A model generated the notes under the pieces. The model searched no databases, had not been told where the DNA came from, and saw nothing but the letters and a program-made list of their open reading frames with translations. Positions 18 to 48,987 of a stretch of 55,213 nucleotides of DNA are shown here, in pieces (position 1 is the first letter of the stretch; the number at the start of each line of letters is the position of its first letter). Origin of the DNA: a virus (Duplodnaviria > Caudoviricetes). Made by a program: the position numbers and the translations under genes. The stretch lies in IMG/VR virus record IMGVR_UViG_3300029171_000008, positions 1-55,213 of that record, one strand, 5' to 3'.

Positions 18-769
18 AGGAGGAGCAAAGCGACGCCCGTACGACCCAAGAATCACAAGAATCAACTAAACCCCTGAAATTCTATGAGCGTTTAGCACAG
101 GTGCAAAGTGAGCTGGCCAGTGTAAGCAAAACAGGTAACAACACCCATCAAAATTACCGATATGCGAAGGAGGGGGATTTCATTGAAGCAATCCGCCCTA
201 TTCTAAATAAATGGGGTTTATTTTTAACGGCTGAGTGTGTTTCCCACAGCCTTGAGCGATTTGAAATCTGTGACAATAAGGGGCAGCTTAAAACAGTTCG
301 CGCGGCCACGGTGGAAATCCAATGTGAAGTGATTGATGTGATGAGCGGGGAGAAGTTAACACGGCGGATGCCGGGGTACGCCGAGGATGCATCGGACAAG
401 GCGCTGTATAAAGCCATTACAGGGGCGACGAAGTATGCAATTTGGAAAACCTTTGGCTTATCTACCGCTGACGATCCAGAGGCAGATAGTGCTCATTCAT
501 CCTATGGCAACTTCTCAGCACCGCGCAACACCAAAGGAAGTGTGCCGAGGGAACCTTCCTCCGGCCACCTTCCGTTCCGCGAAGATCACCCGCTCATCCA
601 GAAATCCACTGCCCTCCTGCGCGACCTTAACTGGTCAGACGATGACGGGCGCACTTATCTCCACGCTCAATATCGCAAGAATCGGCGCGTTGAGTTGACC
701 TACTCACAATTAACCGAGTTTGTCCAATACCTTGAATCGTTAAAAACCATTGAGACGACAACAGCATGA
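18..769 (+). CDS. ERF-family single-strand annealing protein, 5'-truncated
   Basis: Frame is open upstream of 101 (KFYERLAQVQSEL..VSKTGNN..NYRYA); ERF motif DKALYKAITGATKY..FGL...DDPE; C-terminal helical domain LNWSDDDGRTYL...ELTYSQL. Confidence 0.85.
536..573 (+). repeat. 38-nt hairpin dispersed repeat, copy 1 (inside ERF gene)
   Basis: GGAAG-TGTGCCGAGGGAACCTTCCTCCGGCCAC-CTTCC. Confidence 0.85.
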
Positions 770-987
770 TCCAAACATCCCCACCCTTTGAAGAGACCGC
801 GCTTTATCACCAGTCCCTAGCGACTGTGGTGGCAGCGCTGAGGGCTGACTTTTATCAGCCTGACGGCCCCGTCCTGCTGAATGCCCTCACCGCCCTCAGC
901 TTGAAACTAAACCATCAGCAACTGGGCATTGTCTGCGCCCATGCAGCTTTCGAGGCAAGCAAGCCCAGCAAGCAGGATCTTAACTAG
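766..987 (+). CDS. Hypothetical protein
   Basis: 73-aa ORF with ATGA overlap to the ERF stop. Confidence 0.6.
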   Translation: MIQTSPPFEETALYHQSLATVVAALRADFYQPDGPVLLNALTALSLKLNHQQLGIVCAHAAFEASKPSKQDLN

Positions 988-993
988 GGTGGG

Positions 994-1356
994 TCAAACC
1001 TTGTGCTCTGGGTTGGGTTCAAACCCAAACTCATTTAACATGCGCATGATTTCCCCTTGATAGTACGCCCCTGCCCTTGGGTCAACTTGAGTCAGCGCAA
1101 TTTCAAGCGCCTCAATGCCCATGGCAGTCAAATCGTTGTGCCCATGCAAAAATTTATTTAATTGGTGCGGATCGACGTAATTTCCTTGTCCCGCTTGCTG
1201 TAACGCCTTTGTCCGCCTACTGATCTCGCGCTGGCTAATCTCATAGCGTTTGATCGACCTCAACATAATATCTCGCCGCCGATGAATAATGGGCGTTGAG
1301 CTTGTGTTAGAATCCCCCTCTTTTTCTCGCTTGGTTCTTGCCATGATTCCATTCAT
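994..1356 (-). CDS. Cro/CI-like HTH transcriptional regulator (candidate phage repressor)
   Basis: ISQREISRRT...DPHQLNKFLHGHNDLT resembles an XRE HTH; divergent from the replication genes; start may be 1344. Confidence 0.65.
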   Translation of the reverse strand: MNGIMARTKREKEGDSNTSSTPIIHRRRDIMLRSIKRYEISQREISRRTKALQQAGQGNYVDPHQLNKFLHGHNDLTAMGIEALEIALTQVDPRAGAYYQGEIMRMLNEFGFEPNPEHKV

Positions 1357-1390
1357 TCCCTACGTAATATTTTAATCGTATCCCCCATGT

Positions 1391-1408
1391 GTTGTATTTA
1401 AGTACAAT
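1391..1408. promoter_or_regulatory. Palindromic box RTTGTA-N6-TACAAY, copy 1
   Basis: GTTGTAtttaagTACAAT upstream of the HTH gene. Confidence 0.8.
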
Positions 1409-1607
1409 GCAGACATAGTATACCTTTCCCTATAGTACACGATTGCCCTAAATTTGATTGTATGATTCACCCACTTTTATTGAATCACACCTGCTTTCCT
1501 TGGTAGACCAATTGTTTTTTGCTTAAGCAAGCCGTGAAATTTAACTATTAATAGATGTCTGCTTTGCTGCGTTGAGTAAGGGGAGCGGTGGCCATTTTGG
1601 GTTAATA

Positions 1608-1625
1608 GTTGTATTTTTATACAAT
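1608..1625. promoter_or_regulatory. Palindromic box, copy 2
   Basis: GTTGTAtttttaTACAAT upstream of the rep leader. Confidence 0.8.
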
Positions 1626-1637
1626 AGCTATAGGCAC

Positions 1638-1811: not shown

Positions 1812-3200
1812 ATGGCAACCTTAACGTCGATTATGGGTTTACTGGATCGTCCCATTGCGTTTCATCGCGTGTTTGCCCAAATTGGGGGCAGCCTTGAGGC
1901 AGGTATTTTTCTTAGTCAAGCAGTTTATTGGAGTCTGCGCACAAAAGACAACGACGGTTGGTTCTGGAAGACTCAAGAACAGTGGTTTGATGAGACGTTT
2001 CTGGGTCGCTCCTCTCAAGAACGGGCACGACGGCAACTGAAACGTGTCGGTGTCCTTCAAGAACAGAAACGCGGGGTTCCTGCACGCTTGTATTTTCGGA
2101 TTGATTCAGAGGCACTTGAGCAAATATTACTCGTTAAGCTTAATCATGAGGCTGAAAGCCTTGCTAGGACTGAAATACACCAGTATGCTGAAAACCAGCA
2201 AACTAGTCTGTCGAAAACCAGCAAACTAGTCTGTCGAAAACCAGCAGACAAGCCTGCTGAAAACCAGCAAACTAGTCTGTCGAAAACCAGCAGGCTATAT
2301 CTTACAGAGACTACTTCAGAGACTACTTCAGAGACTACTTCAAATCAATCTCTCTCTTTCTTTACTGGATCCCACGCGCGTGCACGCGAGGACAAAGAGC
2401 AAGAACCAGAGAAAGACAAAGAAAGAGAGACAGAGAAAGAGATAATTAAAGAAAATCAGGAAAAACCGATAGCTATCCTTGATCGGGTTCCGCTGGCTTT
2501 ACCACCATTACCGGACAAATCCCACCCCTCGTTTGGGGACGAAAGTTCCGCCGCGTCGCCCGTGGATCCCAGCGAATCTCGGGGGATGGAAGATTCTATC
2601 CCCGAAGTTTGCCTTGAACACAAAGCTGAAGGATTGCGACGGGTCAGCGATTGTGAGCGTGTTGAGGCAGCATTTCGCCAGGGCGGCTTACGAAACTACC
2701 CTTGGCGAAACAGTGGGGGGCGCAATGACTTCGTGCCGTGGATTGTGGCGCACTATTGCAAAAAGCTCACGGCTTCGCAGTACTATCGAGACTTGGGGAG
2801 AGAGGCTACCCTTGGTGAAGCAAAGGCCCGTATATCAAGGCTTGAGAACACTGAGGTGGGCGTCGATGAGCTGTTTGCTGTGGTCGAGGATCACGACAGC
2901 CAGCAAAATTTGCATCCCCAGTGTGTTGTATTAACGCACAATAGCCCAACGATTTTGCCCCTAGAAGCGATGGAATCCCCCCCTTCGGTACCTTGGCTTG
3001 ATCAGAGAACGGGACATGGCTTTAAGCACGATTTTCTAGAGTATCTGGGAGCCGAATGTGTCCCAGAGCCGCGCGAGGGGGATACGAAATACCGTATACC
3101 GTTGTCGGTGTATGGCTTGCAGGCTTTCAAGGCGCTCTCTGATCCAGAGCGCTGGGGCAAGTGGGAGGCGTACCAGGCTCAGATGGACGCTGAATTTTGA
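1812..3200 (+). CDS. Phage replication initiator (lambda O-like wHTH N-terminus)
   Basis: RPIAFHRVFA...FLSQAVYW...GWFWKTQEQWFDET...ARRQLKRVG; internal iterons; followed by DnaB. Confidence 0.8.
   Translation: MATLTSIMGLLDRPIAFHRVFAQIGGSLEAGIFLSQAVYWSLRTKDNDGWFWKTQEQWFDETFLGRSSQERARRQLKRVGVLQEQKRGVPARLYFRIDSEALEQILLVKLNHEAESLARTEIHQYAENQQTSLSKTSKLVCRKPADKPAENQQTSLSKTSRLYLTETTSETTSETTSNQSLSFFTGSHARAREDKEQEPEKDKERETEKEIIKENQEKPIAILDRVPLALPPLPDKSHPSFGDESSAASPVDPSESRGMEDSIPEVCLEHKAEGLRRVSDCERVEAAFRQGGLRNYPWRNSGGRNDFVPWIVAHYCKKLTASQYYRDLGREATLGEAKARISRLENTEVGVDELFAVVEDHDSQQNLHPQCVVLTHNSPTILPLEAMESPPSVPWLDQRTGHGFKHDFLEYLGAECVPEPREGDTKYRIPLSVYGLQAFKALSDPERWGKWEAYQAQMDAEF
2190..2342 (+). repeat. Iteron array / probable replication origin
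   Basis: GAAAACCAGCA core at 2190, 2213, 2236, 2259, 2282 (23-bp period), then 3 x 12-bp CAGAGACTACTT at 2305-2340. Confidence 0.85.
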
Positions 3201-8400: not shown

Positions 8401-11400
8401 TCAATCCTTGCCTAGGCGTTGAGCAGCACGACGAGCGGCGGCGGCACGTTCACGGTCTACTTGAGCCTTGGTTGCCCTAAAGCTATTAGCATCTGGTGTA
8501 TTGATGGTGGTGTTTTGATGAATCACAATCGTGCGTGGTGGTGCAGTACGGGATGAGGGATTAGAGTTGAGCACCATTAGGCCCGGATCGCTGCCAGGGG
8601 TACCGCCGTTTGAATAGTTATGAGCCTTGGCGCGACGAAGATCACTGGTGATGCCTTTACGACCCATCCACCGCCACAGCTTTGTATCGTGCTCGTTCAA
8701 TACATACTCGCGGGTATTGGCCACGATGGGCACCGCCCCTACCCCCTCGCGTTTCATAGCAATATCAATTGATTTACCCAGTGCCCAAGCGTCAAAGTCA
8801 TCAATGGGGCCACCGGAGGCATAGTTTTTGATGGGGCCACCTGCTGCATAGTTCATGACGGGGCCACCACCACTGAGGCCAGGGAGACCACTGAAAATAG
8901 AGGCGATGAATTTGCTGGCCATTGCTGCGAGTTGTTTGGCGGCGATATCAGCAAAGATCTGGGCCAGCATTTGCAGCGTTTTAGCGCCAAATTCTTGCAG
9001 GGTGGTCATGGCGTCTTTCGTGCCTAAGATCACATCCCCAATGGACATGAACAAGTCACCAAAGGCATTATTGAGACCGCTCTCAATTTGTTGCTGAAGA
9101 TAGTTGGTCTCGTTGGCGAGGTTAGCGAGGGAAATTTCACGGGTTTTGATCAGGGTTTCTCTTAACCGCTCTGCTTCATCTGCACTCAGTCCTAAATTCT
9201 GGGCTAACTGACCAATTTGCTCAATCTGAGCACCTGATAAATCTGACGTATCTGCTAAGCCCTTAATAAAGTCCTGATCACCACTACCAAGACCCAATGA
9301 GGTCGCCATTGTATTAAATTGCTCCAGCACCTCTGGGTCAACTTTGGCATTTTTAGCAAGGTCAAATAACTGTTTTAATTCATCAGCACTAACCCCGATA
9401 ACATCAGTGAGACGGGCGATTGATTCAACCTGATTGGGTGAAATTAGATTTTCTTTGGCAATGGTCTGTACATCTTTTTGATAGTCACTAATGCGTTTAT
9501 CTAAGTCACGCATTTGTTCATCAAATTGTTGGTCAATCTGTATTTTACGGGCTTGATATTGATAGCGACCTGCCGTGACAGGATTTTTCTCACCCTGCGC
9601 CAACGCTTCGTAATAGCTACTTTGGACTTGGCGGGTGTATGAGATTTTCTCAAAGATTTTGTCGAGGTTAAATTCGGTCTGGATTTTATTAACCAGTTGC
9701 TTTTCAGCCTCACTACTGAGGTTGATATCTGATTGCTGGGTCAGCAATCCAATTTGAATCGAAATGCCTTTGGCGTAGGCATCTAGGGCATTGGCTTGTG
9801 GCAAGTTGCCCTGTTGCCGTGCGGTGTTGGCTTTGGAAGCGGCACTTTTGAGTTCAGCATTGAGTTGCTTGAGGTAGTCGGTTGTTTTGAGACGGGCATC
9901 TTCAAATTGGCGTGAGACGTTCTCCAGATCATTAATCAGTGGCGTGAGGGGGCCATCCATACGCGAGAGGCTGATGAGTTCGCGACGAAATTGCCGCTGC
10001 TCTTGGGTGGTGGCGTCGAGGGCTTCGCGCAGTTTACGGTTGAGGATGGTGGCTGTTAATCCACCTGCCTCTTTAATGTCACCTAGGGCGCGTTTATATT
10101 GCTCAAGTTTGGCTTGGTCACTGGTGAGCGTCTCACTCAGTTCTTTGATGGTGGCTTTAATTTGGGGGCGGTTGGCCTCAGGGACGACGGTGAGTTGTTG
10201 GGTGAGTGACTCAATGAGGGCGCGGTAGGTATCAACATTGCGCTGGAGACTGGCGATGTCATCGGTGAACTGGCGAATTTCACCGACACGGCTTTGCTCG
10301 GTTTGGACGACGGAGCTAAGGATACTATTGACGGTGGTTTCGGGGGCGTAACTATCAAAGACCCCTGTGACCCGGTTGCCTAAATCTTCAAGGTTGTAGC
10401 GGTTTTGTTTCTGTATGTCGTTAAGCTGGTGAATAATGTTGCGAAATTGTTGCTCAGTCTGAATTTTTTTGGTGGCTTGTTGTACTTGGGAGAGTTGATT
10501 AGTTAATGCATATTGCTGTTGCAGGCCACCCACTTGCTGGGCGTAGGGGATGGTGGATAATTGGCCTGTGGCATTGGGAACGGCAGGCATGGGTAAACCC
10601 TGACCTGTTGCTGTAGTGCTGCCAATGGCACCGCGCACTTTGGTGAGTGCGCCTTGGTATTTTTGCATATATTGCGGATCGGTTGCATAGATGCCATAGC
10701 GCCCCTTAAAGCCACGTTCCATAAAACTCTCAGGGGTAGTCACGTAAAAATCTTCTTTCAGCGCCTTGGCTGCGTGAATTAACCCCTCACGGAAACTTTT
10801 GAAGTATTTGTCATTACCAGCATCGTCGTTGCCATAATTGAGGGGATTTTTGGTATAGGCAGCACGGCCTGTGGTGCCAAAGTGCGACTCGATTAAGGCT
10901 TGGGTGACTAAGGCATCAATGGAGACGCCAGATTGTTGGGAAGCGGCAGCAAAATCAGTGCCTGTGAGTACTGATTTAGGGGCATATTTTTTAATAAAAG
11001 TATCAATTGCACCCAGAGAACTGGCAGGCATTGAAAAAGGTTTAATGTTGTTCGCTGCAAAATTAGCGGGGGTGAAACCTTTCTCAATAAAGGGAAACCA
11101 AACCTCTTTTAAGAATTTGATTCTGAGGCTATCGGGAATGCCGACATTAGAACCGGGCTGATAAAAATCAGCGCTGACATGGGTACCCAGGTCGCCGCCT
11201 GGATTTCTAGCACCATTAACACCAGCGGAGGTATGGCCACTACGACCTTGTTCACCAATCACCGTACCAGCGGGCAAAGTCTGGCCAGGAACAATGGCCG
11301 CGTTAATTTTTTGGAAATGGCCTAGCAGAACATCAATTTCTTTGCCTAAATATTTGAAGCGCAGCTCGACTGCATTTCCATAGCCGCTGCCGTCATTGAA

Positions 11401-21393: not shown

Positions 21394-21861
21394 CTACGGT
21401 GTATAAACGTGGTTCAAAACCTTAACGGTTTCAAAGGTTTCAAAGGTGACACGGGCTTGGGGGAGGTTATCAAATTCACCCAAGGGGGGGAGAGGAACTG
21501 TATGACAACAGGGGAAAAATTGCTCCAAGCGAGCAACGGCGCTCGCTAGGTGTGGCTCACCGTCGTCGGTCTCATGAGGAAGGTGGCCGGGGGAAGTTTC
21601 TCCCGGCACACTTCCGTGTTGCACTAACACTAAATCCCAAGTCTGGGTTTTTTTTACCCGCCGACTGGTCCACAGGTTGTCACTCTCGCTCACCCACGGC
21701 ACGGTGATTTCTAACCCCTGAGTTACCCAATCATCGGGGGTGATTGCACCGATACCCACCGCAGGCAGTACGGTACCGCCCGGTAGGGTATAGGTACCGA
21801 GCAACGGCGGGTCGTGGTTGAGTACCTGAGTTACCATGTCCATCACCTCCTCTGCTGTCAT
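21394..21861 (-). CDS. Tail completion / terminator-like protein
   Basis: Synteny; ATGA overlap with the upstream gene; contains repeat copy 2. Confidence 0.5.
   Translation of the reverse strand: MTAEEVMDMVTQVLNHDPPLLGTYTLPGGTVLPAVGIGAITPDDWVTQGLEITVPWVSESDNLWTSRRVKKTQTWDLVLVQHGSVPGETSPGHLPHETDDGEPHLASAVARLEQFFPCCHTVPLPPLGEFDNLPQARVTFETFETVKVLNHVYTP
21578..21615 (-). repeat. 38-nt hairpin dispersed repeat, copy 2
   Basis: GGAAG-TGTGCCGGGAGAAACTTCCCCCGGCCAC-CTTCC; 34/38 identical to copy 1. Confidence 0.85.
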
Positions 21862-22268
21862 GCCTTGAAACCCTGCACAAATGCGTTGCCCCACTGCGCT
21901 TCACGACGGGCAACGCGGGTAAAGCGACGGGCGGGGATACGGGTGCCATTGCGTAAGGTTGCCCCTTCATGAACCACCACGGGCGGGGTTTTTCCACTGC
22001 CCCCCCACACAAATTGCACCCGGAATTGACCCACTGGGCGGACTTGTTGGTCACGGGCGAGGTTGCCTAGATCTTTGATATTGCGATAGGCACCCACCAC
22101 CACCTCGCCACTTTTACGGCGGGTGACGCGCCCTTCAAAACCGCGCCAATAACGGGGGGTGAGTAGTACCAACTGACAAACTTGGTAATACTCAGCAATG
22201 ACGGACTGATGAGCGTTGGTAAACCGTCGTTGCAGGTCGGCGCGATGACTGATGGTACGGATGCTCAT
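21858..22268 (-). CDS. Neck / tail-completion protein (HK97 gp10-like)
   Basis: RNIKDLGNL, VVHEGAT, IPARRF motifs; synteny. Confidence 0.6.
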   Translation of the reverse strand: MSIRTISHRADLQRRFTNAHQSVIAEYYQVCQLVLLTPRYWRGFEGRVTRRKSGEVVVGAYRNIKDLGNLARDQQVRPVGQFRVQFVWGGSGKTPPVVVHEGATLRNGTRIPARRFTRVARREAQWGNAFVQGFKA

Positions 22269-28478: not shown

Positions 28479-29342
28479 CTACTGAGCTAAGTACAGCATC
28501 AGCCAATCAGTTGCGCCCCTAATTTCATCAGGGCTCATGGGCTGAATAGAACCATCAAAGGCTACCTGACGCAGAGTAATATTGCGTTGCTCTAGATCAC
28601 TCAAAAATTGATTAAGGTCAGATTCGCTGTGGCAGCACGGAGTAAGTTCCATAAAAATCTTAAGGTGGGGGTTTGCATCAAGGGTGCGCTGCATCCCTTT
28701 CCACACCTCCAGCTCGTAGCCCTCTACGTCAATTTTAACTAGGTCTAAAGAGCGCTCCTTAATTAAATCCAAATCATCCACACAGACTTGATCACAGTAA
28801 GTATGCAGCACATCGTCGTTTTGATATGCATCGCTTGTCGGTTGCACCGAAGCAAGCAAGGTGTCCGGGGGAAGTTTCCCCCGGCACACTTGCGCACCGC
28901 CCCACAAATAAGCAGGCACTGCTAACGGCACAAATTGAAGGGTGCTTTCTCCCGCCAAAACAGGCAAAACCTGCACAGCACCATAGCCATTCGCTGCCAA
29001 GGAGCGCAAAAGCAGTGTTACTAGCGTGTGGTTGGGTTCAATTGCAATCACATTTTCAGCCCCCGCCCTCATTGCCATCAGCAGGGTGTAATACCCACAA
29101 TTGGCCCCAATATCCAGACAACGCATCCCGCGCTTCAGGTGCTTGGCAATGGCGAGGGTGATCCACGATTCCCAGTAGCCCATGGTGATCAGACAGGGTG
29201 TCAGCGATACATCCTGCGCCGCTACATACAAAAACTGATTCCCCAATACCCGACACAAGATGGCACCCTCTCCCACATACTGCGACCAAGCGGCAGCCTG
29301 ACAGTGATCCTCAAATTGCTCTCGGGTCGTGAAATTTGCCAT
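28479..29342 (-). CDS. FkbM-family SAM methyltransferase
   Basis: DIGANCGYYT, AIEPN, KIDVEGYE. Confidence 0.9.
   Translation of the reverse strand: MANFTTREQFEDHCQAAAWSQYVGEGAILCRVLGNQFLYVAAQDVSLTPCLITMGYWESWITLAIAKHLKRGMRCLDIGANCGYYTLLMAMRAGAENVIAIEPNHTLVTLLLRSLAANGYGAVQVLPVLAGESTLQFVPLAVPAYLWGGAQVCRGKLPPDTLLASVQPTSDAYQNDDVLHTYCDQVCVDDLDLIKERSLDLVKIDVEGYELEVWKGMQRTLDANPHLKIFMELTPCCHSESDLNQFLSDLEQRNITLRQVAFDGSIQPMSPDEIRGATDWLMLYLAQ
28856..28893 (-). repeat. 38-nt hairpin dispersed repeat, copy 3
   Basis: GCAAG-TGTGCCGGGGGAAACTTCCCCCGGACAC-CTTGC inside the FkbM gene. Confidence 0.85.
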
Positions 29343-29502: not shown

Positions 29503-29540
29503 GGAAGCTCTGCGGGGGAACCTTCCTCCGCAAGACTTCC
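29503..29540 (+). repeat. 38-nt hairpin dispersed repeat, copy 4 (intergenic variant)
   Basis: GGAAG-CTCTGCGGGGGAACCTTCCTCCGCAAGA-CTTCC. Confidence 0.75.
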
Positions 29541-38215: not shown

Positions 38216-38228
38216 GTCCTAAAAAATT

Positions 38229-39517: not shown

Positions 39518-39521
39518 GCAC

Positions 39522-39845
39522 ATGGATGACTTAGAAACCAAAGTAGAGCGTGAACTGGTCATCGGTGGTGTTTACCGAAACGTGAAAGGGTTTACTTATA
39601 TTGCTTTGGGGTTGTATTCAGTCCAAAAAGCGGCTCAGGAGCACCAAATCGTTAAAACACCCTTTGGCGTAGCCATTGCTTCAAGTGCGCTTTCTATTGG
39701 GGAGGCGGTGGTCTATTGTTCTACGCTCAATAGAGAAGCTCGCTATGTGCGCGGTCTTGACAATTTTCTGGCCATCATCGGTGATTTTGATGAGGGCACC
39801 ATGTATTACCGTTTTGAGCTATTGAGCGATGGTCAGCAAAATTGA
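39522..39845 (+). CDS. DUF1653-like protein
   Basis: GVYRNVKG..Y...VVY...YVR.LDNFL...YRFE. Confidence 0.6.
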   Translation: MDDLETKVERELVIGGVYRNVKGFTYIALGLYSVQKAAQEHQIVKTPFGVAIASSALSIGEAVVYCSTLNREARYVRGLDNFLAIIGDFDEGTMYYRFELLSDGQQN

Positions 39846-40233: not shown

Positions 40234-40247
40234 GCAGTTGAGGTTAT

Positions 40248-42608
40248 ATGGCTCAAATCATGGTGCCTTTGGCCATCAGTGCAGCGCTACAGGTGTTGTC
40301 GCTGTTGCTGATGCCCAAGCCCAAGGTCGATAAACCACGGCTACCGGATCAAAGCTATGGCACTCCCATACCCCGTGGCTGGGGGCGCTTTGTGGTCAAT
40401 GGGAATTACATTTGGGGCTATACCACGCAATCAGGGGGCGGGAAGGGGCAACTGGGGCCACAACCGCCAGAACTGAGCGGCACGTTTGCATTACTGCTGT
40501 GTGAGGGGCAGATTGCTGATATTCGTCGTGTCTGGTGGGATGGCAAGCTGGTCTATGACAAATCTCCAGACCATGACCCAGATCCAGCCATTATTGAGTT
40601 ACCGGAGTTAAATGGGGATTGGGACAACTGGCAACCCATTGTTGAAGAAAGCGAACAGGCCAGTGAACGCCATGCTAAATACATGCGTCTCTATAGAGGT
40701 ATCCCCGGTCAAGATCCGAATCCTCACTACCAAGACCGTGTGGGTACCGACCGCGCCCCTGCCTATCGCGGGTTTGCAACCCTGTGGTATTTGGGGGTAC
40801 CCCTTGAAAATAGACATATTCCGTACTCCATTAAGGTGGAGGTGATTGAGCGCACCGAGACACTTTATCTGAGTGATATTTTGCGCGACATTTGCCTGAG
40901 CGCCATGTACGAACCGCGCAATATTGACGTGGAGGATGTAGACGATATTGTGGTGCGCGGCTTTTACCGTAACCCCGAACCCCCCATTGAAACCATTAAA
41001 CGGTTGCAGGTAGCCTATCAATTTGATGTGGTGGATGTGAACGGCAAGGTGTCATTCAAAAAGCAAGCTCGCACTGGGGCCTATGGGTTAGCGCGGACTG
41101 ACCTAGGGTGCTATGAATACGGCAATGACCAGATGCCTTTATTGTTCACCCATACCCTGATTAATGAGAACGAAAAAATACATGAAGTGCGCCTTAAATA
41201 TGTCAATTACCGCAGAGAATATGAAGATGATGAAGTCTATGAACGGCGCTTAGCGGTCAACCCACAGAATGTTAACAAACAGGACTTTGAGACTAATTTA
41301 ACCCTCACCCCCGACGAGGCGCGTTCTATTGTAGTGCGGTTGTTGTATTTGGCTCAACTGAGGGCGGATCAGTTTAAGTTTAGTTTACCGCTACATTATT
41401 TTAAGTATTTCCCCAATGATATTTTGTATGGGGAATTTTATGAGGGAGAATATAACGCCATCCAGCTCACCAAAAAACGAATGGGCTTTAATGGGTTGGT
41501 TGAATTTGAAGGGATATTGTATGGCGCAATTCCCTATTACAACTGTCATGACCGCCCAGCCTACGTGCCAGATTTTAAGTTACCGTTGCCCCCCAGTGAC
41601 ACCCAAAATCCCACCTTTGAACATGAGATGCCAGGGCAAAGTATTAATCCCCCGCGCCCTGGTGTGCCTCATCGGGGAGAGAGTTTGTGCAAGCTATTGG
41701 ATATTCCGCTGCTGCGCGACAGTGACCCGGAGGTAGGGTTATATGCCGTGAGTGCAGGCACATACTCGTGGCGCGGGGGAACGGTGTATGGGGTGCATGG
41801 GGGGGGTGAGTATCGCAAGTTAGCGCAACTCATCCGCTCCTCTACCTGGGGTAACTGTGTGAATACGTTGGGGGATGCGTCGTTTCATGTATTGGATCGG
41901 CGCAATAGTTTGACGGTGCAATTAAAGGCAGGGGCGTTGACCAACATCGGCCTTGACCAGATGGTGGCAGGGGACAATACAGCCCTGATTTATCGCGATG
42001 CAGATCACTATGAGTTGATTCGCTTTCAATATGCAGTATTGGTTAACCCTAAAACCTACCGCTTGTCTATTTTGCAGCGCGGGGTACGCGGGACGGAGTG
42101 GGGGATTGGGGAGCACCAGGGGGGTGAGTTGTTTTATCTATTGCGCAGTAAAGGGTATTACGAACGTATTGAGGGGCAGGTGCGTGAAATTGGACAGCCG
42201 CTCACCTATCGCGTCCCTGCCCCAAACCAAACCTTAGATGAAGCGACTGCAATAACCATTACCCCCAAAAGCCATGATTTGTACCCCTATGCACCCTGTA
42301 CAATCAGAGGGGATCGCGATGGGATGGGGGGATTATTGATTCGGTGGGTGAGACGAGATCGCAAAGCAGATGACTTACCTTGGTTTAACCCAATCCCCCT
42401 GAGTGAAACCCTAGAGCGCTATGTGGTGCAGATTTTAGAGAACAATACTGTGAAGCGTGAGGTTGAAATTAATGACTTGCAGGAATATTGGTATAGCACG
42501 GCGGATCAGGTGAGTGATTTTGGCACAGTGCAGCCCTCAGTTAAGGTGCGGTTATATCAGGTGAGTGCGGTTGTGGGGAAAGGATTTGCTGGGGTAAAAA
42601 CATTATGA
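40248..42608 (+). CDS. Tail tip / host-specificity protein (GTA g15-like)
   Basis: YGTPIPRGWG, LLCEG, PAYRG, RGVRGTE, WVRRDR, PLSETLERY. Confidence 0.88.
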   Translation: MAQIMVPLAISAALQVLSLLLMPKPKVDKPRLPDQSYGTPIPRGWGRFVVNGNYIWGYTTQSGGGKGQLGPQPPELSGTFALLLCEGQIADIRRVWWDGKLVYDKSPDHDPDPAIIELPELNGDWDNWQPIVEESEQASERHAKYMRLYRGIPGQDPNPHYQDRVGTDRAPAYRGFATLWYLGVPLENRHIPYSIKVEVIERTETLYLSDILRDICLSAMYEPRNIDVEDVDDIVVRGFYRNPEPPIETIKRLQVAYQFDVVDVNGKVSFKKQARTGAYGLARTDLGCYEYGNDQMPLLFTHTLINENEKIHEVRLKYVNYRREYEDDEVYERRLAVNPQNVNKQDFETNLTLTPDEARSIVVRLLYLAQLRADQFKFSLPLHYFKYFPNDILYGEFYEGEYNAIQLTKKRMGFNGLVEFEGILYGAIPYYNCHDRPAYVPDFKLPLPPSDTQNPTFEHEMPGQSINPPRPGVPHRGESLCKLLDIPLLRDSDPEVGLYAVSAGTYSWRGGTVYGVHGGGEYRKLAQLIRSSTWGNCVNTLGDASFHVLDRRNSLTVQLKAGALTNIGLDQMVAGDNTALIYRDADHYELIRFQYAVLVNPKTYRLSILQRGVRGTEWGIGEHQGGELFYLLRSKGYYERIEGQVREIGQPLTYRVPAPNQTLDEATAITITPKSHDLYPYAPCTIRGDRDGMGGLLIRWVRRDRKADDLPWFNPIPLSETLERYVVQILENNTVKREVEINDLQEYWYSTADQVSDFGTVQPSVKVRLYQVSAVVGKGFAGVKTL

Positions 42609-43321
42609 GTGAAACTACACCAAAATTAGGGTTATACCAGCTCATTGCGCTGCAAGGGGATGCCTATGTCCTCTATAACGAGAGTTTATTTCGCACTGAA
42701 TTATTTGCCGCTGGTGTAGTTAAGTCACGAACCGTGGGTACTCCACCGGATCCAATTGTGGATGGGGATGCGTACATTGTGCCATCAGGCGCGACAGGGG
42801 GGTGGGCGAATCGAGCCAATCATCTTCAGCTAGGACTGAACAATGCTTGGCTAGATATTGTGCCCTTTAACCGCTGTGGGTTTTGGGTGGAGGATGAAGA
42901 TATTTCGCTGCGTTACCTATCCCCAGATTGGAGCGAGGAATCAACGGGGGGTAATGGCGGATTGCCTTCAGATGTTCCGCGTCTTAACACTGTTAATGTT
43001 TTTAACAGGGCACAGGGGAGTAGTCCCGTTGCTCTAACGCCAGGGGCTAGTGTTGCGGTAGATGCAGCGCTCAGTAATACTTTTACGCTGGCACTCGACA
43101 GCAATTCCACTGTTGAAAATCCCATAAATTTGCAATCGGGGTTTGTCTACAATTTCCACGTTAGCCAAGCTGCTAGCGGTGGTCCCTATACCTTGGATTG
43201 GGGCAGCGCCTTTAAGGGCAGTATTGATGCACTAACAACCACCGCTAATCAAACAGATTGGTATGCATTTCAATGTATTGGCGGCGATTTACGGTTTGCA
43301 GGAAAGGTGGGGCCATTCTAG
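42605..43321 (+). CDS. DUF2793 tail protein
   Basis: TPKLGL...YNESL...PP....GDAYIVPSGATGGW. Confidence 0.85.
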   Translation: MSETTPKLGLYQLIALQGDAYVLYNESLFRTELFAAGVVKSRTVGTPPDPIVDGDAYIVPSGATGGWANRANHLQLGLNNAWLDIVPFNRCGFWVEDEDISLRYLSPDWSEESTGGNGGLPSDVPRLNTVNVFNRAQGSSPVALTPGASVAVDAALSNTFTLALDSNSTVENPINLQSGFVYNFHVSQAASGGPYTLDWGSAFKGSIDALTTTANQTDWYAFQCIGGDLRFAGKVGPF

Positions 43322-43825
43322 ATGTTTGCATTGGCACCCACAATTATGGGAAGTACCGACTCAGGCGGTGGTAGCAGACCCGCTACCTATGACCCTTTGA
43401 CCTTTACTGCTAGTGACAAAGCAGACGGCAACACTTATTTTTCAGGGTCTCCAGCCGCTTTACATGATGGGATAAAGACGGTTCCCCATTCAGGAGGTGA
43501 AGGGGCCATTGCCATTAACACAGGTGAGGTTGCCTGGGTTCTCACCCTACCCAGCGCCGCTTACCTAAACCGCATAATTTTGTACTTAGGACAATTCAAC
43601 GGCCCGTATAATCAACCCGGTTCTTTGGATGTCTATGGTGGTAACAGCATCTCAGGGCCGCTGCTATCGCAACATGCTTGGGCTGAGCCGTATATGGAAA
43701 CGATTGAGCTATTAACTGATTCAGATTACGATACCGCCAGAAATCAGTATTATTTCCAGTTCAATGGCCCTCATGGCTACATATCGGTAGCGGAAATTGA
43801 GTTATTTGGCGGTATTGTTAATTAA
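43322..43825 (+). CDS. Putative receptor/carbohydrate-binding tail protein
   Basis: Follows DUF2793; beta-sandwich-like ending ISVAEIELFG. Confidence 0.5.
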   Translation: MFALAPTIMGSTDSGGGSRPATYDPLTFTASDKADGNTYFSGSPAALHDGIKTVPHSGGEGAIAINTGEVAWVLTLPSAAYLNRIILYLGQFNGPYNQPGSLDVYGGNSISGPLLSQHAWAEPYMETIELLTDSDYDTARNQYYFQFNGPHGYISVAEIELFGGIVN

Positions 43826-45678
43826 ATATCTTGTGGGCAACCTTGATAAGTAGACCAATTTAACTGCACAAAAGGCTCTGCTGGGCCATTGAACTCTCGG
43901 TAACGGATGTACAAAGATCTAATATCCCTAAACGCAGCCATTTCACTGGTCTGCACCGAACTAGGGTAAGTTGTCATTTCAAGCACATAGTCCGGTGCTC
44001 CCTGCATTTGAGCGTTTAGTCCCTTAGATGTCCAAATATCAGCGAATCGTGGAAGCCAATATCCATCTGCGCCACTTCCCACGAATGAAAGGCTGGGATA
44101 GAGAATAACTAAGTTAATAGTTTTAGTTTGATAAAACGTCACCCGCATTTGCAAATCATTACCTGTGGAGATGATTTGTTGCTGATACGCGAGGTTAAAG
44201 TATTCCTGACAGCGCGGTAGTGCATCACGACCACAAACCTGACCTGAACCCACCCCCTCATAACTTTCTCCACTCTCTGTATAGGTAACAGGAAAGGTCG
44301 GCAATACCTCCACTACCGCCATGTTTTGAAACTGATAGCTGACAGAAGGGGCGGTTTCTACGGTGTTATCAGGATCAAGCAATGCACTTTTAAGGGTCGC
44401 TTGATCACTATCAAAACGCATCTCAATATCATGCTCCCCTGACCAAGCAAGGGCAGCACCTGAGGGGGGTGGGATATTAAATGTCACTAATCCTTTTTTG
44501 GCGTTAATGGTGAGCGCACTTTGGGCAACCCCATTGCGGTAGACCACCACCGTACCGCGTACCACATTGAGAATCCCTCTGGTGACCGCGCGGCCAAATT
44601 GGATGTACTTTTTTTGAAACTTGAAGGTTTTTACCACCCCATCAGGGGCAGGGGTAAACACACCTTGAATACTGGTGAATTCATCTAAATTTGTGCGCGT
44701 AGCGGTGGCTTTATAATCCGCCCAATATTTCCACCGAAACGTCTGGGCACGACCGCGACGGCAATGGAAAAAACAGAGCGCATATTCAAGCGCTGTATCT
44801 TCAAGCAACGACTGATTAATTTCACCCTTAAGTAAGGGTTCACTTTGGTAGGCAGTACGGCGCTCAAAACCACTGTCGAGGCGCTTGGTGAAAATATTAT
44901 GGCTGGGGCCAATGGCATCAGTGGGGCCAATGAGGGGGCCAAGCTCAAGGCGGTACTCGCAGCTCTCCTTAAGCTCAGTTGAGGGCATATTGGTACCCTC
45001 AATGAGCGGCATCTCAATTTCAATGAGGGGTAATGAATCGACTTGGAAGAGCGCTAATTCTTGTTCGTAGAACACATTTTGGTCAGGATCTTGGACAAAT
45101 TGCTGAATTGCGGGGATGGTATCGGTATCAAAGCGGACGGGCAAATCAAACGTGCCGCTCCAGGTGATGCGTTGGTTGGGTTCAGGGGGGACACGCAGAA
45201 ACAAGCGACCTGTACTGCGGCTATAGGTGGCTAGGGTGAGTTCACCGCCCACAAACACTTGCACAGTATCGGGTTTGTGGATGGGTTTATAGGTGACGTG
45301 CTCCCCTTGCTGATATTTTTTGAGCAGGTGGAACATCTGCCGCTCCCCATCCCCGCGCAAGGGTGTTGTCACCCCCTGGGTACTGCAATCCCCGCCTAAA
45401 TCCTTGGGCGCAGCGGTGACCTGGCAATCAGCCCAGAAGCGAAACCGAAACCCCTGTCGTTTCCCCTGACGCGCATTGAGAAACGCAATTAGATAACGCA
45501 CCTGGTCTTGGTCTAATAAAATCTCAGAAAGATTTCCTTCGTACAGCCACACACTCTGCTGACTCCAGCGTTTCTCAAACTCATACCCAGTACGGATTAT
45601 TTTGGTGCGGTATTTGGGGCCACCTGCTTGAACAGGCATCCCAATATCTAGAAGGGTCTCGACAAAATCATCAGCCAT
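43822..45678 (-). CDS. Distal tail protein with two DUF2460 domains (GTA g12-like)
   Basis: FLNARQGKRQGFRFRFWAD...PVRFDTD and FFHCRRGRAQTFRWKYWAD...MRFDSD. Confidence 0.85.
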   Translation of the reverse strand: MADDFVETLLDIGMPVQAGGPKYRTKIIRTGYEFEKRWSQQSVWLYEGNLSEILLDQDQVRYLIAFLNARQGKRQGFRFRFWADCQVTAAPKDLGGDCSTQGVTTPLRGDGERQMFHLLKKYQQGEHVTYKPIHKPDTVQVFVGGELTLATYSRSTGRLFLRVPPEPNQRITWSGTFDLPVRFDTDTIPAIQQFVQDPDQNVFYEQELALFQVDSLPLIEIEMPLIEGTNMPSTELKESCEYRLELGPLIGPTDAIGPSHNIFTKRLDSGFERRTAYQSEPLLKGEINQSLLEDTALEYALCFFHCRRGRAQTFRWKYWADYKATATRTNLDEFTSIQGVFTPAPDGVVKTFKFQKKYIQFGRAVTRGILNVVRGTVVVYRNGVAQSALTINAKKGLVTFNIPPPSGAALAWSGEHDIEMRFDSDQATLKSALLDPDNTVETAPSVSYQFQNMAVVEVLPTFPVTYTESGESYEGVGSGQVCGRDALPRCQEYFNLAYQQQIISTGNDLQMRVTFYQTKTINLVILYPSLSFVGSGADGYWLPRFADIWTSKGLNAQMQGAPDYVLEMTTYPSSVQTSEMAAFRDIRSLYIRYREFNGPAEPFVQLNWSTYQGCPQDI

Positions 45679-45682
45679 GGAA

Positions 45683-46534
45683 CTAGCTCAGTACACCTCG
45701 ACTGACTGGAAATTCACAGCCCAAGACATCGAAGTTGATCAGATTAGTTGCGGCTGACCCTGTGTGCCAGAAGGCTGCACCAAACCCTAGCGCTCGGTTA
45801 ATGGCTGGGATATTAGTCGTGAGTGTTGTGGTCCAAACCACTATTCCTGCATCGTTGCGCAATTCAAATGATGCGGTGGCTCGGTTGGCACTGAGGTTTA
45901 TGAGTAGTGTGTACCAAGTACTGGCGCTGAGGACTGGCGAATTAGCGCTGGAGCTAAGGGTGCCACTATTTACTGTGTAGGCAGTCAGCGTGTTGCTCGC
46001 GCCGTTTAGGCCCACCATAACGCCGTCAGTGGGTGCGGTGACCGTTGCTGAATTGATAAAGCCAATTCGTCCAACAATGGCATTATTTGCGGTGTTGAGG
46101 GCAAAGCAAGCGAGACCACTCTCGCCACCACTCATTACTAGGTTGTTGGTGTTGGTGCAGACAGAGAAGCCAGAATTTGCATTGGCACCAGATAGAAGTC
46201 GAGAGTTGCCGGGGTGGCCTGATATAGGTGGCCCTGCTGCTACGTTAATAGTGCCACCTGTGCCAATGGATTGGCCGACAAAATCACCCAGCGCATTCCC
46301 ATTACTATTGCCAAATTCTGTCCAAAACCGGGCTGGTTTCAAAAACTGCTCATAGAGCGTTGGTCTTGCAGCGAGTCGTAGCTCATTAATCGCTGCGACT
46401 AGGTTGGCTTTATTGGTGGTTGATAGGCTATTTAGGCTTGATATGTTGCCGTTGAGCAGTGTGCGGAGAGCTTTATTCTCCGCACTTAAGCGATCGACGA
46501 TTGCTGATAGCTGTTGCTCAGTGGCGTAGGGCAT
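45683..46534 (-). CDS. Fibre-like protein with lectin-like C-terminus
   Basis: TTNKANLVAAINEL motif; beta-rich G/N/T C-terminus. Confidence 0.6.
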   Translation of the reverse strand: MPYATEQQLSAIVDRLSAENKALRTLLNGNISSLNSLSTTNKANLVAAINELRLAARPTLYEQFLKPARFWTEFGNSNGNALGDFVGQSIGTGGTINVAAGPPISGHPGNSRLLSGANANSGFSVCTNTNNLVMSGGESGLACFALNTANNAIVGRIGFINSATVTAPTDGVMVGLNGASNTLTAYTVNSGTLSSSANSPVLSASTWYTLLINLSANRATASFELRNDAGIVVWTTTLTTNIPAINRALGFGAAFWHTGSAATNLINFDVLGCEFPVSRGVLS

Positions 46535-47019
46535 TAGACCAATCCAGCATTAAACTGAGCGACGAAGTCAGTGGTAGAGTCTACTACCCCAATATTGCTG
46601 CGGGCCTGCGCTTGTTGTGGCGCAGTGAGAGTCTGAGTTTCAAACGAAATTTTATTGGCAACCGCTGTATTGAGGGCACTGATGGCATTGGGGTTGTTCT
46701 GAAACGCATTGGCAATTTCGGTAATCGTATCCAACGTGGCAGGCGCTGACCCAATTAAGGCGGAGAGGGCTGCGGCAATCTCGGTTGTGGTTTTGGATGA
46801 TGACCATACCGTGGTCGTTCCTGCCGCACCATCGTTAATCTGTACTCCACTCAATGCGTGCAATTCGTTGATTGCTGCGACCAAGCTGCTTTTAGCTGTG
46901 GTGTTTAATCCAGACAGGTCTGTTGCATTGTTATTGAGCAACGTGCGGATAGACCTGGTGATTGTTGAAAGTTCATTTGTTAGCGCACTGAGTTGGGCTT
47001 CAGTAATATAAGTGGACAT
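46534..47019 (-). CDS. Fibre-like protein
   Basis: TTAKSSLVAAINEL, WSSSK, APATLDTITEIANA, QQAQARSNIG. Confidence 0.7.
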   Translation of the reverse strand: MSTYITEAQLSALTNELSTITRSIRTLLNNNATDLSGLNTTAKSSLVAAINELHALSGVQINDGAAGTTTVWSSSKTTTEIAAALSALIGSAPATLDTITEIANAFQNNPNAISALNTAVANKISFETQTLTAPQQAQARSNIGVVDSTTDFVAQFNAGLV

Positions 47020-47388
47020 CTAAAGTAAACCTCCCAAAAATTGTTGAGCAAAGTTTGTCGTTGAAGGGGTTAGGTTAGGCGATGAGCCATCTGCTGGCCC
47101 ATTATTCACATTGAGTAAATCACGATGGATTTTGATTTGGGTACAGGTTTCAAGCAATTTAGCCCGTGATTCCTGGGTCAGTGCCATCCCCTCTAGCTGA
47201 TAAATAAAATGCTGCAACCGTGTTTCAAGGTCTGGATTAACAGGCAAGGGTTGTCCTAGCACATTTCGCAATAGCCTGATTTGCTGTGCTAGGCGGGTCG
47301 CCTGGGCGAGGGTGGTGGAGGGGGAGAGAATCTGATTGCGTAATTGATTGATCTCCTCTAAAAGCCGTGTTTGGAATTGAGCAGACAT
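47020..47388 (-). CDS. Hypothetical protein in the fibre cassette
   Basis: Abuts the next gene; C-terminus resembles that of 46534-47019. Confidence 0.6.
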   Translation of the reverse strand: MSAQFQTRLLEEINQLRNQILSPSTTLAQATRLAQQIRLLRNVLGQPLPVNPDLETRLQHFIYQLEGMALTQESRAKLLETCTQIKIHRDLLNVNNGPADGSSPNLTPSTTNFAQQFLGGLL

Positions 47389-47416
47389 GGTGTTTTAGGC
47401 CCGTTTTTCCTCGCAC

Positions 47417-47434
47417 ATTGTCTAAGAATACAAC
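47417..47434. promoter_or_regulatory. Palindromic box, copy 9
   Basis: ATTGTCtaagaaTACAAC upstream of the fibre operon. Confidence 0.7.
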
Positions 47435-47515
47435 ACAGCAGTGTTTTTACAGAGACCGCTCAAGCACTCCGTGCTTTTAGTTGCGTGGAATCACGATTGG
47501 ATAGCGTTACTAAAC

Positions 47516-47533
47516 GTTGCAATAATCTACAAC
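47516..47533. promoter_or_regulatory. Palindromic box, copy 10
   Basis: GTTGCAataatcTACAAC upstream of ATG 47567. Confidence 0.6.
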
Positions 47534-47566
47534 ACGGGTATAAATAAAGGCGAGGGGTGGTACACC

Positions 47567-47917
47567 ATGCAAATGTTGATGGCAGAAAAAAGCGAACGCG
47601 AGGAAAGCAAGGGCAGTGCGGGGCAATACGACTTTATCCCTGACACCATTGATGCCATTGGCCGCACCAGTAAGGTTCTTAATGAACAAGGGTCGGGGTG
47701 GTGGAAGTTTAGTGTTTTGGCGGTGATTTGTGGAATGGTGGTGGGGGGTGTAGCCATCGCGCTCAAAGTGGATCCACAGCAATGGCATCAACAACACAGG
47801 ACACCCACACCCACATTCACACCAAGCACCGCTGCACCAGCACCTCCAACCCTTGATCCTGACGGGTCAGGACTCAGCCCCTGTAAGCCTGTGGGCAGTT
47901 CATGGCTGTGCAGCTAG
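47567..47917 (+). CDS. Single-TM membrane protein with Pro/Thr-rich tail
   Basis: WWKFSVLAVICGMVVGGVAIAL; TPTPTFTPSTAAPAPP. Confidence 0.6.
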   Translation: MQMLMAEKSEREESKGSAGQYDFIPDTIDAIGRTSKVLNEQGSGWWKFSVLAVICGMVVGGVAIALKVDPQQWHQQHRTPTPTFTPSTAAPAPPTLDPDGSGLSPCKPVGSSWLCS

Positions 47918-48987
47918 TTGTCAGACGTCAACAACTTAGCGCGAACCTTTTGCAGAAACCGCTGCGAACGGAGTTGCCAGATGGTAAACGGGGTGAGGGG
48001 AGAAATTGTACGGGCACGACGCATCGTGCCCGTACCTATTTGCTCCTCAGTTTGGGCATCAAAAAAGGCATTGATGTCTGTCAAAATAGTGGCCAGCCGT
48101 TGCACAATGTTGTCCCGGCGATATTCAGCCAGCAAGGTTGCTGTATCTAGAGCGGGTGGGAGATCGTGCGCTGCATTCAAGATCCGCTTCAGGTCATAGT
48201 CCAGCGAGTAGCCCGCGATTTTTTGGCAGTTAAACCCGGGATCCAGATAATCCGATAAACCATGATTCACGCTAGAAAACACCTGACAACCACAGGCGAT
48301 GGCCTCTAGGGGTTGCAGCCCAAAGCCCTCACTCACACCCTGAAGCGCCCAATATTCAGCGGAATCGTAAAGGTAAACCTTAGCTCGGTTTAAGAGCGCC
48401 GCAAAGTCTTCGACAAAATTGCGCACGACTAACACATTACACTGCGCGAATGTGCCGGGGGAACCTTCCTCCGGCCACTTCGCTTGCTCTAGGGCCGGAA
48501 TGAGCGACTGGAGTAAGTAGCGGGATGACTTCCGCGCATGCACCAAAACATCAATGTCTCGGGACTGACCTTCGTTCTGAAACGCTGGCGAAATCTCATT
48601 GGGCAGGTAGTAGAGCAACGAGTGCGGCGCGAGCTGCCCCCAGTAGCCTAATGTGTTGCGACTCACGGTAATGATGGGGATACGCGCATCTAGACGAAAG
48701 CCATAGCCTGCACTATGGGCGTGGTAGATCAGCGGGTATGCTTTCAGCCGTGGGGCTAACTTGGCGACATCAAACCCCCAACTCATCACGAAAATGCAGT
48801 CCTGTAAGCGGCGCGGGTCTTGCAGTAAATCTGCTAAAAACAGGTTTTGGGGTTCCCGTTGGCGATAGGTCACCACCGTTGCGGGGCAAACCTGGCGGGC
48901 CAATTCAACGGTTTTGAGTTCTGCCCAGAGGCCACCACAAGCAAACGCAGAGGTGGTGCCTGGCAATAGAAAATAAAGCTGCCGCAT
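47914..48987 (-). CDS. Glycosyltransferase (cyanobacterial type)
   Basis: CGGLWAELKT, YHAHS, EGFGLQPLEA. Confidence 0.85.
   Translation of the reverse strand: MRQLYFLLPGTTSAFACGGLWAELKTVELARQVCPATVVTYRQREPQNLFLADLLQDPRRLQDCIFVMSWGFDVAKLAPRLKAYPLIYHAHSAGYGFRLDARIPIITVSRNTLGYWGQLAPHSLLYYLPNEISPAFQNEGQSRDIDVLVHARKSSRYLLQSLIPALEQAKWPEEGSPGTFAQCNVLVVRNFVEDFAALLNRAKVYLYDSAEYWALQGVSEGFGLQPLEAIACGCQVFSSVNHGLSDYLDPGFNCQKIAGYSLDYDLKRILNAAHDLPPALDTATLLAEYRRDNIVQRLATILTDINAFFDAQTEEQIGTGTMRRARTISPLTPFTIWQLRSQRFLQKVRAKLLTSDN
48008..48035. repeat. REP-like perfect hairpin within the glycosyltransferase gene
   Basis: GTACGGGCACGA-cgca-TCGTGCCCGTAC. Confidence 0.7.
48446..48483 (+). repeat. 38-nt hairpin dispersed repeat, copy 5 (antisense to the host gene)
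   Basis: GCGAA-TGTGCCGGGGGAACCTTCCTCCGGCCAC-TTCGC. Confidence 0.85.

Follow-up and report, generated by a model that had tools for sequence, protein, structure and literature searches.

A 38-nt hairpin repeat inside phage genes, probably a mobile element related to a cyanobacterial hairpin-repeat superfamily

Background

Very small mobile repeats are known from cellular chromosomes and hardly known from viruses, and the movement of small repeats that lack a RAYT transposase is an open question. Rickettsia palindromic elements (RPEs), about 100-150 bp in length, were reportedly described by Ogata et al. in 2000 as selfish palindromes that stand in frame in protein genes and are translated. We analysed the phage sequence IMGVR_UViG_3300029171_000008 (hereafter the window, meaning the whole linear stretch of 55,213 bases, with a CheckV completeness estimate of 72%), which contains five copies of a 38-nt hairpin, four of them within open reading frames (ORFs) and one intergenic. 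We consider it likely that each of these repeats is a copy of a non-autonomous mobile element of very small size, similar to repetitive extragenic palindromes (REPs) or small dispersed repeats (SDRs) and moved in trans. On the best reading of the sequences, they would belong, as its phage-borne branch, to a superfamily of hairpin repeats expanded in a few filamentous cyanobacteria. In the phage, five copies are packed into 55 kb that encode no recognisable transposase, which makes it a compact case. New here are the residence in phage coding sequence, the 13-codon design open in six frames and a natural allele series, together with the cyanobacterial superfamily (conserved internal loop, covarying stems, chimeric or flipped cores), which we did not find described in the literature searched; nor were the core string and such elements in phage genes found described in the searchable literature.

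REPs and their doublets (REPINs), for which a REPIN/RAYT model has been proposed (PMC3116915), resemble the element in several respects: imperfect palindromes of 20-40 nt, many dispersed copies, compensatory changes in the stems, mismatches that give an orientation, and a mostly extragenic position in cellular genomes with occasional copies translated in genes. Intragenic REPs exist and are listed by Di Nocera et al. (PMC3733652). In contrast to REPs, none of 26 aligned phage and cyanobacterial copies of our element carries a GTAG or CGTC tag, their ends reading RAAG or CGYRAAG; no RAYT (Y1 transposase) gene among 30 loci is flanked by the hairpin, the phage shows no doublet (REPIN) arrangement, and four of the five copies stand inside virus genes. 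RPEs carry a CGTC end (PMC3733652). The phage element is like them in frame in genes and translated (inserts in a glycosyltransferase and an FkbM protein, four unbroken ORFs), but it measures 38-39 nt and inhabits a phage rather than an intracellular bacterium.

According to secondary descriptions (PMC4390886, PMC5861425, PMC13756078), SDR1-8 (Elhai et al. 2008, Genome Res 18:1484) are 21-27 nt long and confined to Nostocaceae, and SDR5 inserts into HIP1. The likeness lies in very small repeats of filamentous cyanobacteria with no known mobiliser, discretely inserted and sometimes nested in other repeats; our element likewise has filled and empty sites, also nested in another repeat (alleles of the glycosyltransferase gene; a ~130-nt repeat). 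These descriptions nevertheless set it apart from the SDRs, since it measures 38-40 nt and not 21-27, and records of Scytonema, Rhizonema, Brasilonema and Calothrix contain its family, as does a phage whose window holds no HIP1. It may still be identical in sequence to one of the SDRs.

Miniature inverted-repeat transposable elements (MITEs), given as 70-300 bp with 15-30-bp terminal inverted repeats in PMC3733652, are similarly non-autonomous, dispersed and served by an enzyme in trans (e.g. Nezha of cyanobacteria). The phage element differs from them as a single 38-nt hairpin, for which a duplication of at most 2 nt is possible and not shown. Finally, the system of Ssn single-strand nucleases with NTS/SRM hairpin repeats (Chenal et al. 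2025, PMC11893778) differs in that small GIY-YIG genes were not found in two of the three hairpin-bearing genomes searched or in the window, and its NTS repeats are not described as in-frame gene insertions in the abstract of that paper.

Anatomy and statistics of the five copies

Each copy has a 28-nt core between two complementary arms of 5 nt. The coordinates, arms and 5-28-5 anatomy reported by the first-pass annotation, which had been made from the letters of the window, were all verified:

c1: 536..573, + strand; arms GGAAG/CTTCC; 56.2 bits on the + strand, 31.2 on the - strand
c2: 21578..21615, - strand; arms GGAAG/CTTCC; 56.7 bits on the - strand, 38.3 on the + strand
c3: 28856..28893, - strand; arms GCAAG/CTTGC; 56.6 bits on the - strand, 32.6 on the + strand
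c4: 29503..29540, strand ambiguous; arms GGAAG/CTTCC; 49.2 versus 47.3 bits
c5: 48446..48483, + strand; arms GCGAA/TTCGC; 52.1 bits on the + strand, 24.5 on the - strand

Brought into one orientation, c1, c2, c3 and c5 all read 5-nt arm, TGTG, a 20-nt near-palindrome, CCAC or ACAC, complementary arm, and the near-palindrome of these four copies is of the type CCGGGGGAA..TTCC.CCGG. Copy c4 is the most diverged (73% to the reference copy) and is the intergenic one, between the FkbM gene (start 29342) and a second glycosyltransferase gene (29569-30768). All copies are single and spaced by at least 647 nt. The flanks of c3 and c5 have in common a TG before and a TTGCT after the element, which in the glycosyltransferase gene are native coding sequence and which are not found around c1, c2 and c4. 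Relative to their genes, three copies lie in sense and c5 in antisense. None of the 38-mers contains a stop codon in any of its six frames (two stops come from the flanks), and the four ORFs stay open through the element, in agreement with the earlier statement that no frame is broken; the peptides quoted there for the genic copies were also correct by translation. The G+C content of the copies is 63-68%, versus 48.7% for the window.

That this similarity is due to chance or to an assembly artefact is hardly credible. The only point in its favour is that the record is a metagenomic assembly. The core pattern (up to 3 mismatches) gives nine matches in the window, that is the five sites with four of them matched on both strands, and none of 100 dinucleotide shuffles of the window reached nine (mean 0.14, maximum 2). 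Furthermore, contigs of two runs, probably the source samples, are identical to the window over 28700-48600 (c3-c5), and related copies exist in independent genomes and plasmids. We regard an artefact as refuted because of the shuffles, the independent genomes and the source-run contigs taken together. Contigs of three runs (one study) showed no indel or joint at c3-c5, contigs being blind to rare empty alleles. Folded as single-stranded DNA, the copies reach -9 to -16.2 kcal/mol (z = -2.4 to -7.1). An unfiltered covariance model retrieved only the five sites from the window (49-57 bits, against 13 bits and E 0.44 for the next best), a match by construction as it was trained on 26 phage and cyanobacterial copies that include these five. 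The strands and bit scores listed above are those given by this model.

Insertion status in the host genes

The genic copies reside in the following genes:

2..769, + strand: ERF-family single-strand annealing protein gene (PF04404, E 2e-17; PHROG 155), host of c1
21394..21894, - strand: ORF of 166 aa without family assignment, tightly packed in the structural module, host of c2
28479..29342, - strand: FkbM-family methyltransferase gene (Pfam PF05050), host of c3
47914..49014, - strand: GT4-type glycosyltransferase (GT) gene of cyanobacterial type (Pfam), host of c5 and of a second hairpin

Pfam confirmed the ERF, FkbM and GT genes named by the first-pass annotation, whereas its "tail-completion" label for the ORF 21394-21894 found no support.

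The GT gene gives the clearest picture. Copy c5, antisense to the gene, is read as AKWPEEGSPGTFA (GT residues 178-190), and this peptide is missing from all 16 homologues aligned (65-91% identity, four of them at 90-91%) with the flanks perfectly aligned. From these alignments c5 is a clean 13-aa insertion, as the proposed check against homologous proteins had anticipated. In an AlphaFold model of moderate quality (mean pLDDT 63) the insert forms a small excursion between helix 165-177 and strand 194-197. The allele P0002, 90% identical, lacks AKWPEEGSPGTFA and has two other inserts, the first of 13 aa at another place and the second longer and near the C-terminus. When translated in the third frame of the + strand, c5 matches 13 of 14 residues of the first of these inserts, and c3 matches 11 of 14 residues of the second. 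Because P0002 is without the insert of the window and has two others, the two alleles record, at the level of the compared sequences, three separate family insertions in different frames and orientations. A second member of the P0002 cluster, P0392, is encoded on a 36.8-kb contig.

In the FkbM protein, c3 is read in sense in a second frame as (A)QVCRGKLPPDTLL (residues 150-163). Homologues, cyanobacterial ones among them, are 35-41% identical, and a profile built from 17 of them alone leaves exactly 13 residues of the window protein (158-170) in insert states, which overlap the end of the element-coded stretch and extend 7 residues past it. MAFFT alone places the gap elsewhere, so that the 13-residue excess predicted by the alignment check is seen with the profile and its exact position is ambiguous. 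In the ERF gene, whose 5' end extends beyond the window, c1 is read in sense as GSVPREPSSGHLP (residues 179-191) in a hypervariable linker behind the ERF domain, which ends at about residue 171; homologues are only 25-37% identical. Copy c2 is read in sense as GSVPGETSPGHLP (residues 94-106) of the ORF 21394-21894, for which no Pfam match, PHROG match or homologue was found. The earlier proposal of a structure-selected, very small mobile element that adds loops of ~13 aa to phage proteins is supported in the GT and FkbM proteins.

We also considered whether the hairpins arrived passively, inside host gene fragments taken up by the phage. The GT is 72-77% identical to homologues that include cyanobacterial chromosomal ones, and the FkbM homologues are partly cyanobacterial. 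This origin is however very improbable, as the 16 GT homologues, even the four at 90-91% identity, have no insert at that place, the ERF gene and the ORF of the structural module are phage-type genes, and the spacer type of the four clearly oriented phage copies is unseen in the cyanobacterial copies retrieved. No cyanobacterial genome was found with GT and FkbM orthologues more than 90% identical that have the element at the same positions.

A second hairpin, unrelated to the family, is located in the same GT gene at 48007-48036 (arms 47994-48019 / 48024-48049). Its stem is perfect over 12 bp and is capped by a 4-nt loop (-15.8 kcal/mol, z -6.7), and no other local inverted repeat in the window is as strong. 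It codes for 10 extra residues (GTGTMRRART) absent from 15 of the 16 homologues. Its site is occupied in P0002 by a 38-nt family copy. Neither the window nor IMG/VR yielded another copy of the 12-bp hairpin.

The hairpin superfamily in cyanobacteria

A scan of 185,579 species, with one genome per species and a specific pattern, gave 10 loci. Seven are cyanobacterial: two in a Scytonema metagenome-assembled genome (MAG), two in Rhizonema, two in Brasilonema and one in a Synechococcales MAG; the remaining three have no family flanks. This pattern fixed the centre as A or C and for that reason did not cover AAGCTT, the most frequent host centre. With up to 2 mismatches, the core matches 61+55 times in the Rhizonema genome, 21+19 times in the Scytonema MAG, and 9+11, 6+4 and 6+5 times in two Brasilonema genomes and the Synechococcales MAG, where the reversed-pattern control gives 0-1. 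The cellular copies are composed of a 7-nt arm (CGYRAAG), TCTG, the core, CGAG and the complementary arm. The frame AAGTCTG...CGAGCTT surrounds many different 20-22-nt palindromes with covarying halves and is matched 71+67, 44+34, 5+4, 7+3 and 1+2 times in five genomes (control 0). Copies are also present on plasmids of Calothrix sp. NIES-4105 and Brasilonema octagenarum.

What is conserved is thus the architecture (outer stem, mismatched internal loop, inner stem), and the stems themselves are variable. The internal loop is unpaired in register, with T·G, C·A and T·G in cellular copies and T·C, G·A and T·C in the phage. In the alignment of 26 copies, pairing holds in 94.5% of cells, and half of the pairs (8 of 16) vary on both sides; the covariation score was reached by none of 500 shuffles, and slid controls were 40-60% paired. 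Because both stems are kept by compensatory changes across phage and cyanobacterial copies, we consider the element as conserved at the level of structure, as had been proposed from the five phage copies.

The distribution is patchy, as is typical of mobile repeats. The exact core is found in 4 of 401 sampled genomes of the phylum. Among 121 genomes of the order, 19 have a match to the frame, as many as with the reversed control (also 19); palindromic, family-like interiors are limited to two of the 121, Rhizonema (67+65) and one other (2 matches), the other frame-matching genomes having one or two non-palindromic matches each. Among viruses, the specific pattern gave no locus in IMG/VR, a looser core gave 12 loci there of which none has family spacers or arms, and GenBank phages gave no match, in searches from which near relatives of the window may be absent. 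A metagenome scan with the specific pattern yielded only two loci, one of them the duplicate of a Brasilonema scaffold. The first-pass annotation had tied the mobility of the hairpins to the existence of further copies and of empty alleles, and both were found.

Most of the sampled cellular copies are in short open frames, and they are probably mostly intergenic. One copy forms the last 13-14 codons of a thymidylate-synthase-like gene of the Synechococcales MAG, with a convergent gene opposite, and its peptide GSLPGESSPGRLP is close to the phage element peptides. This position at a gene 3' end facing a convergent gene is classic for REP-type RNA elements and raises the question of a function in cis. 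Under such an explanation, the hairpins would be functional elements of the phage transcript or of single-stranded DNA, kept by selection and spread only secondarily, with possible roles in RNA processing or stability, in pausing, or in mimicry of host hairpin repeats, by which the phage would evade or recruit a hairpin-binding protein of the host. Compensatory change keeps the structure, three of the four genic copies are in sense, the intergenic c4 lies between two genes of one transcription direction, and many REPs are probably transcribed, according to PMC3733652. We nevertheless find this explanation unlikely. The copies stand in unrelated genes at positions without common logic, one of them antisense, and the closest GT alleles are without the element or have it elsewhere. 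In addition, no T-run directly follows any of the five hairpins, which also dismisses intrinsic terminators, and the window has no Rfam match at gathering score, which dismisses known RNA families including solitary CRISPR repeats. Finally, a function would leave the clean presence/absence unexplained and would still need a route of insertion.

Two further observations concern the composition of cellular copies. Among the matches listed for two genomes (G001, G002) are chimeric cores, which combine the left half of one palindrome with the right half of a different one, the joint being at the loop (for example a CCGGGGGAAGCTT half then ACAAGAGCGCG, recurring in both). A nested model, with a 20-nt palindrome dropped into a pre-existing outer hairpin, was rejected: just two of the matches listed have an outer frame that encloses 0 to ~1-2 nt, and the outer and inner parts thus appear to travel together.

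At the Scytonema MAG locus L026 (1041-1809), two ORFs in different frames overlap, and a hairpin copy lies where they meet; the downstream ORF has a weak DDE transposase match (E 0.0097, below cut-off). Judging from the sequence, a 40-nt insertion that shifted the frame may have broken a gene here.

Filled and empty sites in cyanobacterial genomes

Besides the GT homologues, empty sites are present in cyanobacterial genomes. A ~130-nt repeat with inverted ends, found in Scytonema, Rhizonema and Brasilonema, exists in four copies with the hairpin and four without it. The hairpin is always at one exact position, and the filled copies are 40-41 nt longer than the empty ones, a difference that would fit a 38-nt hairpin accompanied by duplication of CG, or else a 40-nt unit placed in C^G. 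In the four filled copies the arms are identical and the inner 28-mer differs, being in one pair the exact reverse complement. The ~130-nt repeat itself is MITE-like (loci L028, L079-L085), and several other dispersed repeats make up a mosaic in the intergenic regions around cellular hairpins.

The chimeric cores, and the cases in which the inner 28-mer is exactly inverted while the arms stay identical, speak for a spread without a dedicated enzyme, in which the hairpins would multiply by template switching during replication, by breakage and repair at the palindrome centre, or by annealing recombination (e.g. by the phage ERF) of copies with each other and with microhomologous sites. The phage does encode an ERF recombinase, and c3 and c5 share flanks (TG, TTGCT) that are native gene sequence in the GT. 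Against this, c1, c2 and c4 have flanks with nothing in common with those of c3 and c5, a complete 39-nt unit is found at three positions of one gene without flanking homology, and the conserved internal loop, which defines an orientation, points to recognition by a protein. An enzyme-free origin is for these reasons improbable.

Proposed mechanism and search for a mobilising enzyme

What has to be explained is an imperfect hairpin of 38 nt. Its outer stem is 5 bp long and is separated by an internal loop of 3+3 nt from an inner stem of 9-10 bp, which is rich in G+C and closed by a loop of 4 nt. We propose that the hairpin enters DNA as one discrete unit of ~39 nt. Its mover would be a trans-acting enzyme, either of the cyanobacterial host or from the unsampled part of the phage, which would recognise the folded single strand; the mismatched internal loop would be the feature recognised and would set the orientation. 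Insertion into phage DNA would take place during infection. The copies that survive would be those in frame (39 nt being 13 codons), free of stops and located in linkers or loops, and four of five copies would read as 13-aa loops because only such insertions survive.

The search for this enzyme gave the following results. Scans of 53 ORFs of the window by Pfam and of 66 by PHROGs revealed no catalytic domain of the Y1/HUH, GIY-YIG or DDE type, in line with the first-pass statement that no mobilising enzyme was obvious there. Two PHROG "transposase" labels in the window were discarded: the first ORF is a phage metallopeptidase in Pfam, and the second label comes from a weak partial match of a small protein, which in Pfam has only helix-turn-helix domains, to a transposase PHROG.

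Several results weigh against mobilisation in trans of a hairpin that inserts repeatedly. (i) Enzyme: neither the window nor the cyanobacterial genomes searched yielded a mobilising enzyme. None of 30 Y1-transposase (PF01797) loci in five cyanobacterial genomes has the core with up to 3 mismatches in its 1.5-kb flanks (at 4 mismatches the core is near 2 of the 30), and the number of Y1 genes is inverse to that of hairpins across these genomes. Small GIY-YIG (PF01541) genes are found in one of the three hairpin-bearing genomes searched, G002 with two small frames; the other two (G001, G005) contain only PF01541 frames of 627-656 aa, the size of UvrC, and these genomes being MAGs or draft assemblies, absence is not proven. 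(ii) Insertion: this status is documented for two of the four genic copies (GT and FkbM, not ERF or the ORF 21394-21894), and the junctions of phage copies are seen in protein alignment, not at the nucleotide level. No target rule or target-site duplication was established; the GT junction has no duplication if the codons are unchanged, and the footprint is 39 nt in the phage GT versus 40 nt in the filled/empty series of the hosts. (iii) Origin: the phage spacer variant (TGTG...CCAC) is not among the 10 loci of the species scan, in IMG/VR or in GenBank phages, and the filled host sites are explained at least as well by spread of the filled carrier repeat, with later flipping and exchange of halves at the loop, as by repeated insertion at a hot spot.

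Our preferred interpretation remains that of a very small non-autonomous element moved in trans, and the GT alleles with their three insertions make it possible to test insertion directly, with regard to its junctions, its choice of target, its strand and its enzyme. Phage proteins can in this way gain 13-residue loops in one step. There is also a warning for annotation, as G+C-rich oddities of 13 aa in phage proteins can be selfish DNA. The superfamily could moreover lead to a new hairpin-recognising enzyme.

A stronger proposal, which we hold to be rather unlikely, is that the hairpin is an active, gene-less micro-transposon adapted to phage coding sequence and still hopping in a cyanophage lineage. 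If so, it would create loop-length variation in phage enzymes and virion proteins, and its internal loop would serve as the handle by which an undescribed enzyme of filamentous cyanobacteria, specific for hairpins in single-strand DNA, takes hold of it. In a bolder version, the phage may keep host-type hairpins as a "self" mark for such an enzyme.

Gene content and other features of the window

According to Pfam and PHROGs, the window encodes a replication module (ERF, O-like initiator, DnaB helicase), a structural module (terminase, portal, protease, major capsid, an ORF of 3,584 aa, tail and baseplate proteins) and several sugar-modifying genes. With GenBank phages the portal protein shares no more than 25% identity, and no close phage relatives were found in IMG/VR via the GT, the ERF or the ORF 21394-21894. 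The chromosomal Altericista gene is among the closer GT homologues (75%), and genes of Leptolyngbya and Pseudanabaena are 65-68% identical, or 61-67% for those on contigs of several megabases. The GT similarity and the presence of the hairpin-repeat family in cyanobacteria together point, by sequence resemblance, to a cyanobacterial host. The Synechococcales MAG, which has phage-like hairpin arms, was rejected as candidate host as its GT is only 62% identical.

Several 6-nt palindromes are avoided in the whole window, which fits restriction pressure from a host: CTGCAG (0 versus 23 expected), GGCGCC (0 versus 13.4), CAGCTG (0 versus 10.2), CCGCGG (0 versus 10.1), and ACCGGT, CTCGAG and CACGTG (0 each). 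HIP1 (GCGATCGC) has zero occurrences in the whole window. The idea that the phage shuns the host centre AAGCTT because of restriction was rejected, this hexamer being present 15 times.

Minor features observed in the window, outside the hairpin family, are as follows:

1812-3200: O-like replication initiator gene (PHROG 9773), with about five tandem 23-nt units at 2179-2297 inside it
8401-19155, - strand: the single ORF of 3,584 aa within the structural module
32266-34560, + strand: SNF2-type helicase fused to an N6/N4 DNA methyltransferase
53936-55213, - strand: large terminase ORF, extending past the window end
1389, 1609, 2923, 4633, 29559, 30750, 38196 and 52168, and inverted at 47406: sites of a dispersed motif of ~20 nt, GTGTTGTAT..AGTACAAT

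Residues 8-45 of the terminase ORF have a weak PT-HINT match (20.5 bits, below cut-off), a possible intein remnant. The 23-nt tandem units look like an iteron-type origin within the initiator gene, as in lambdoid phages. Finally, the ~20-nt motif, a TTGTA/TACAA inverted repeat that is mostly intergenic, is probably a family of phage promoters or operators.

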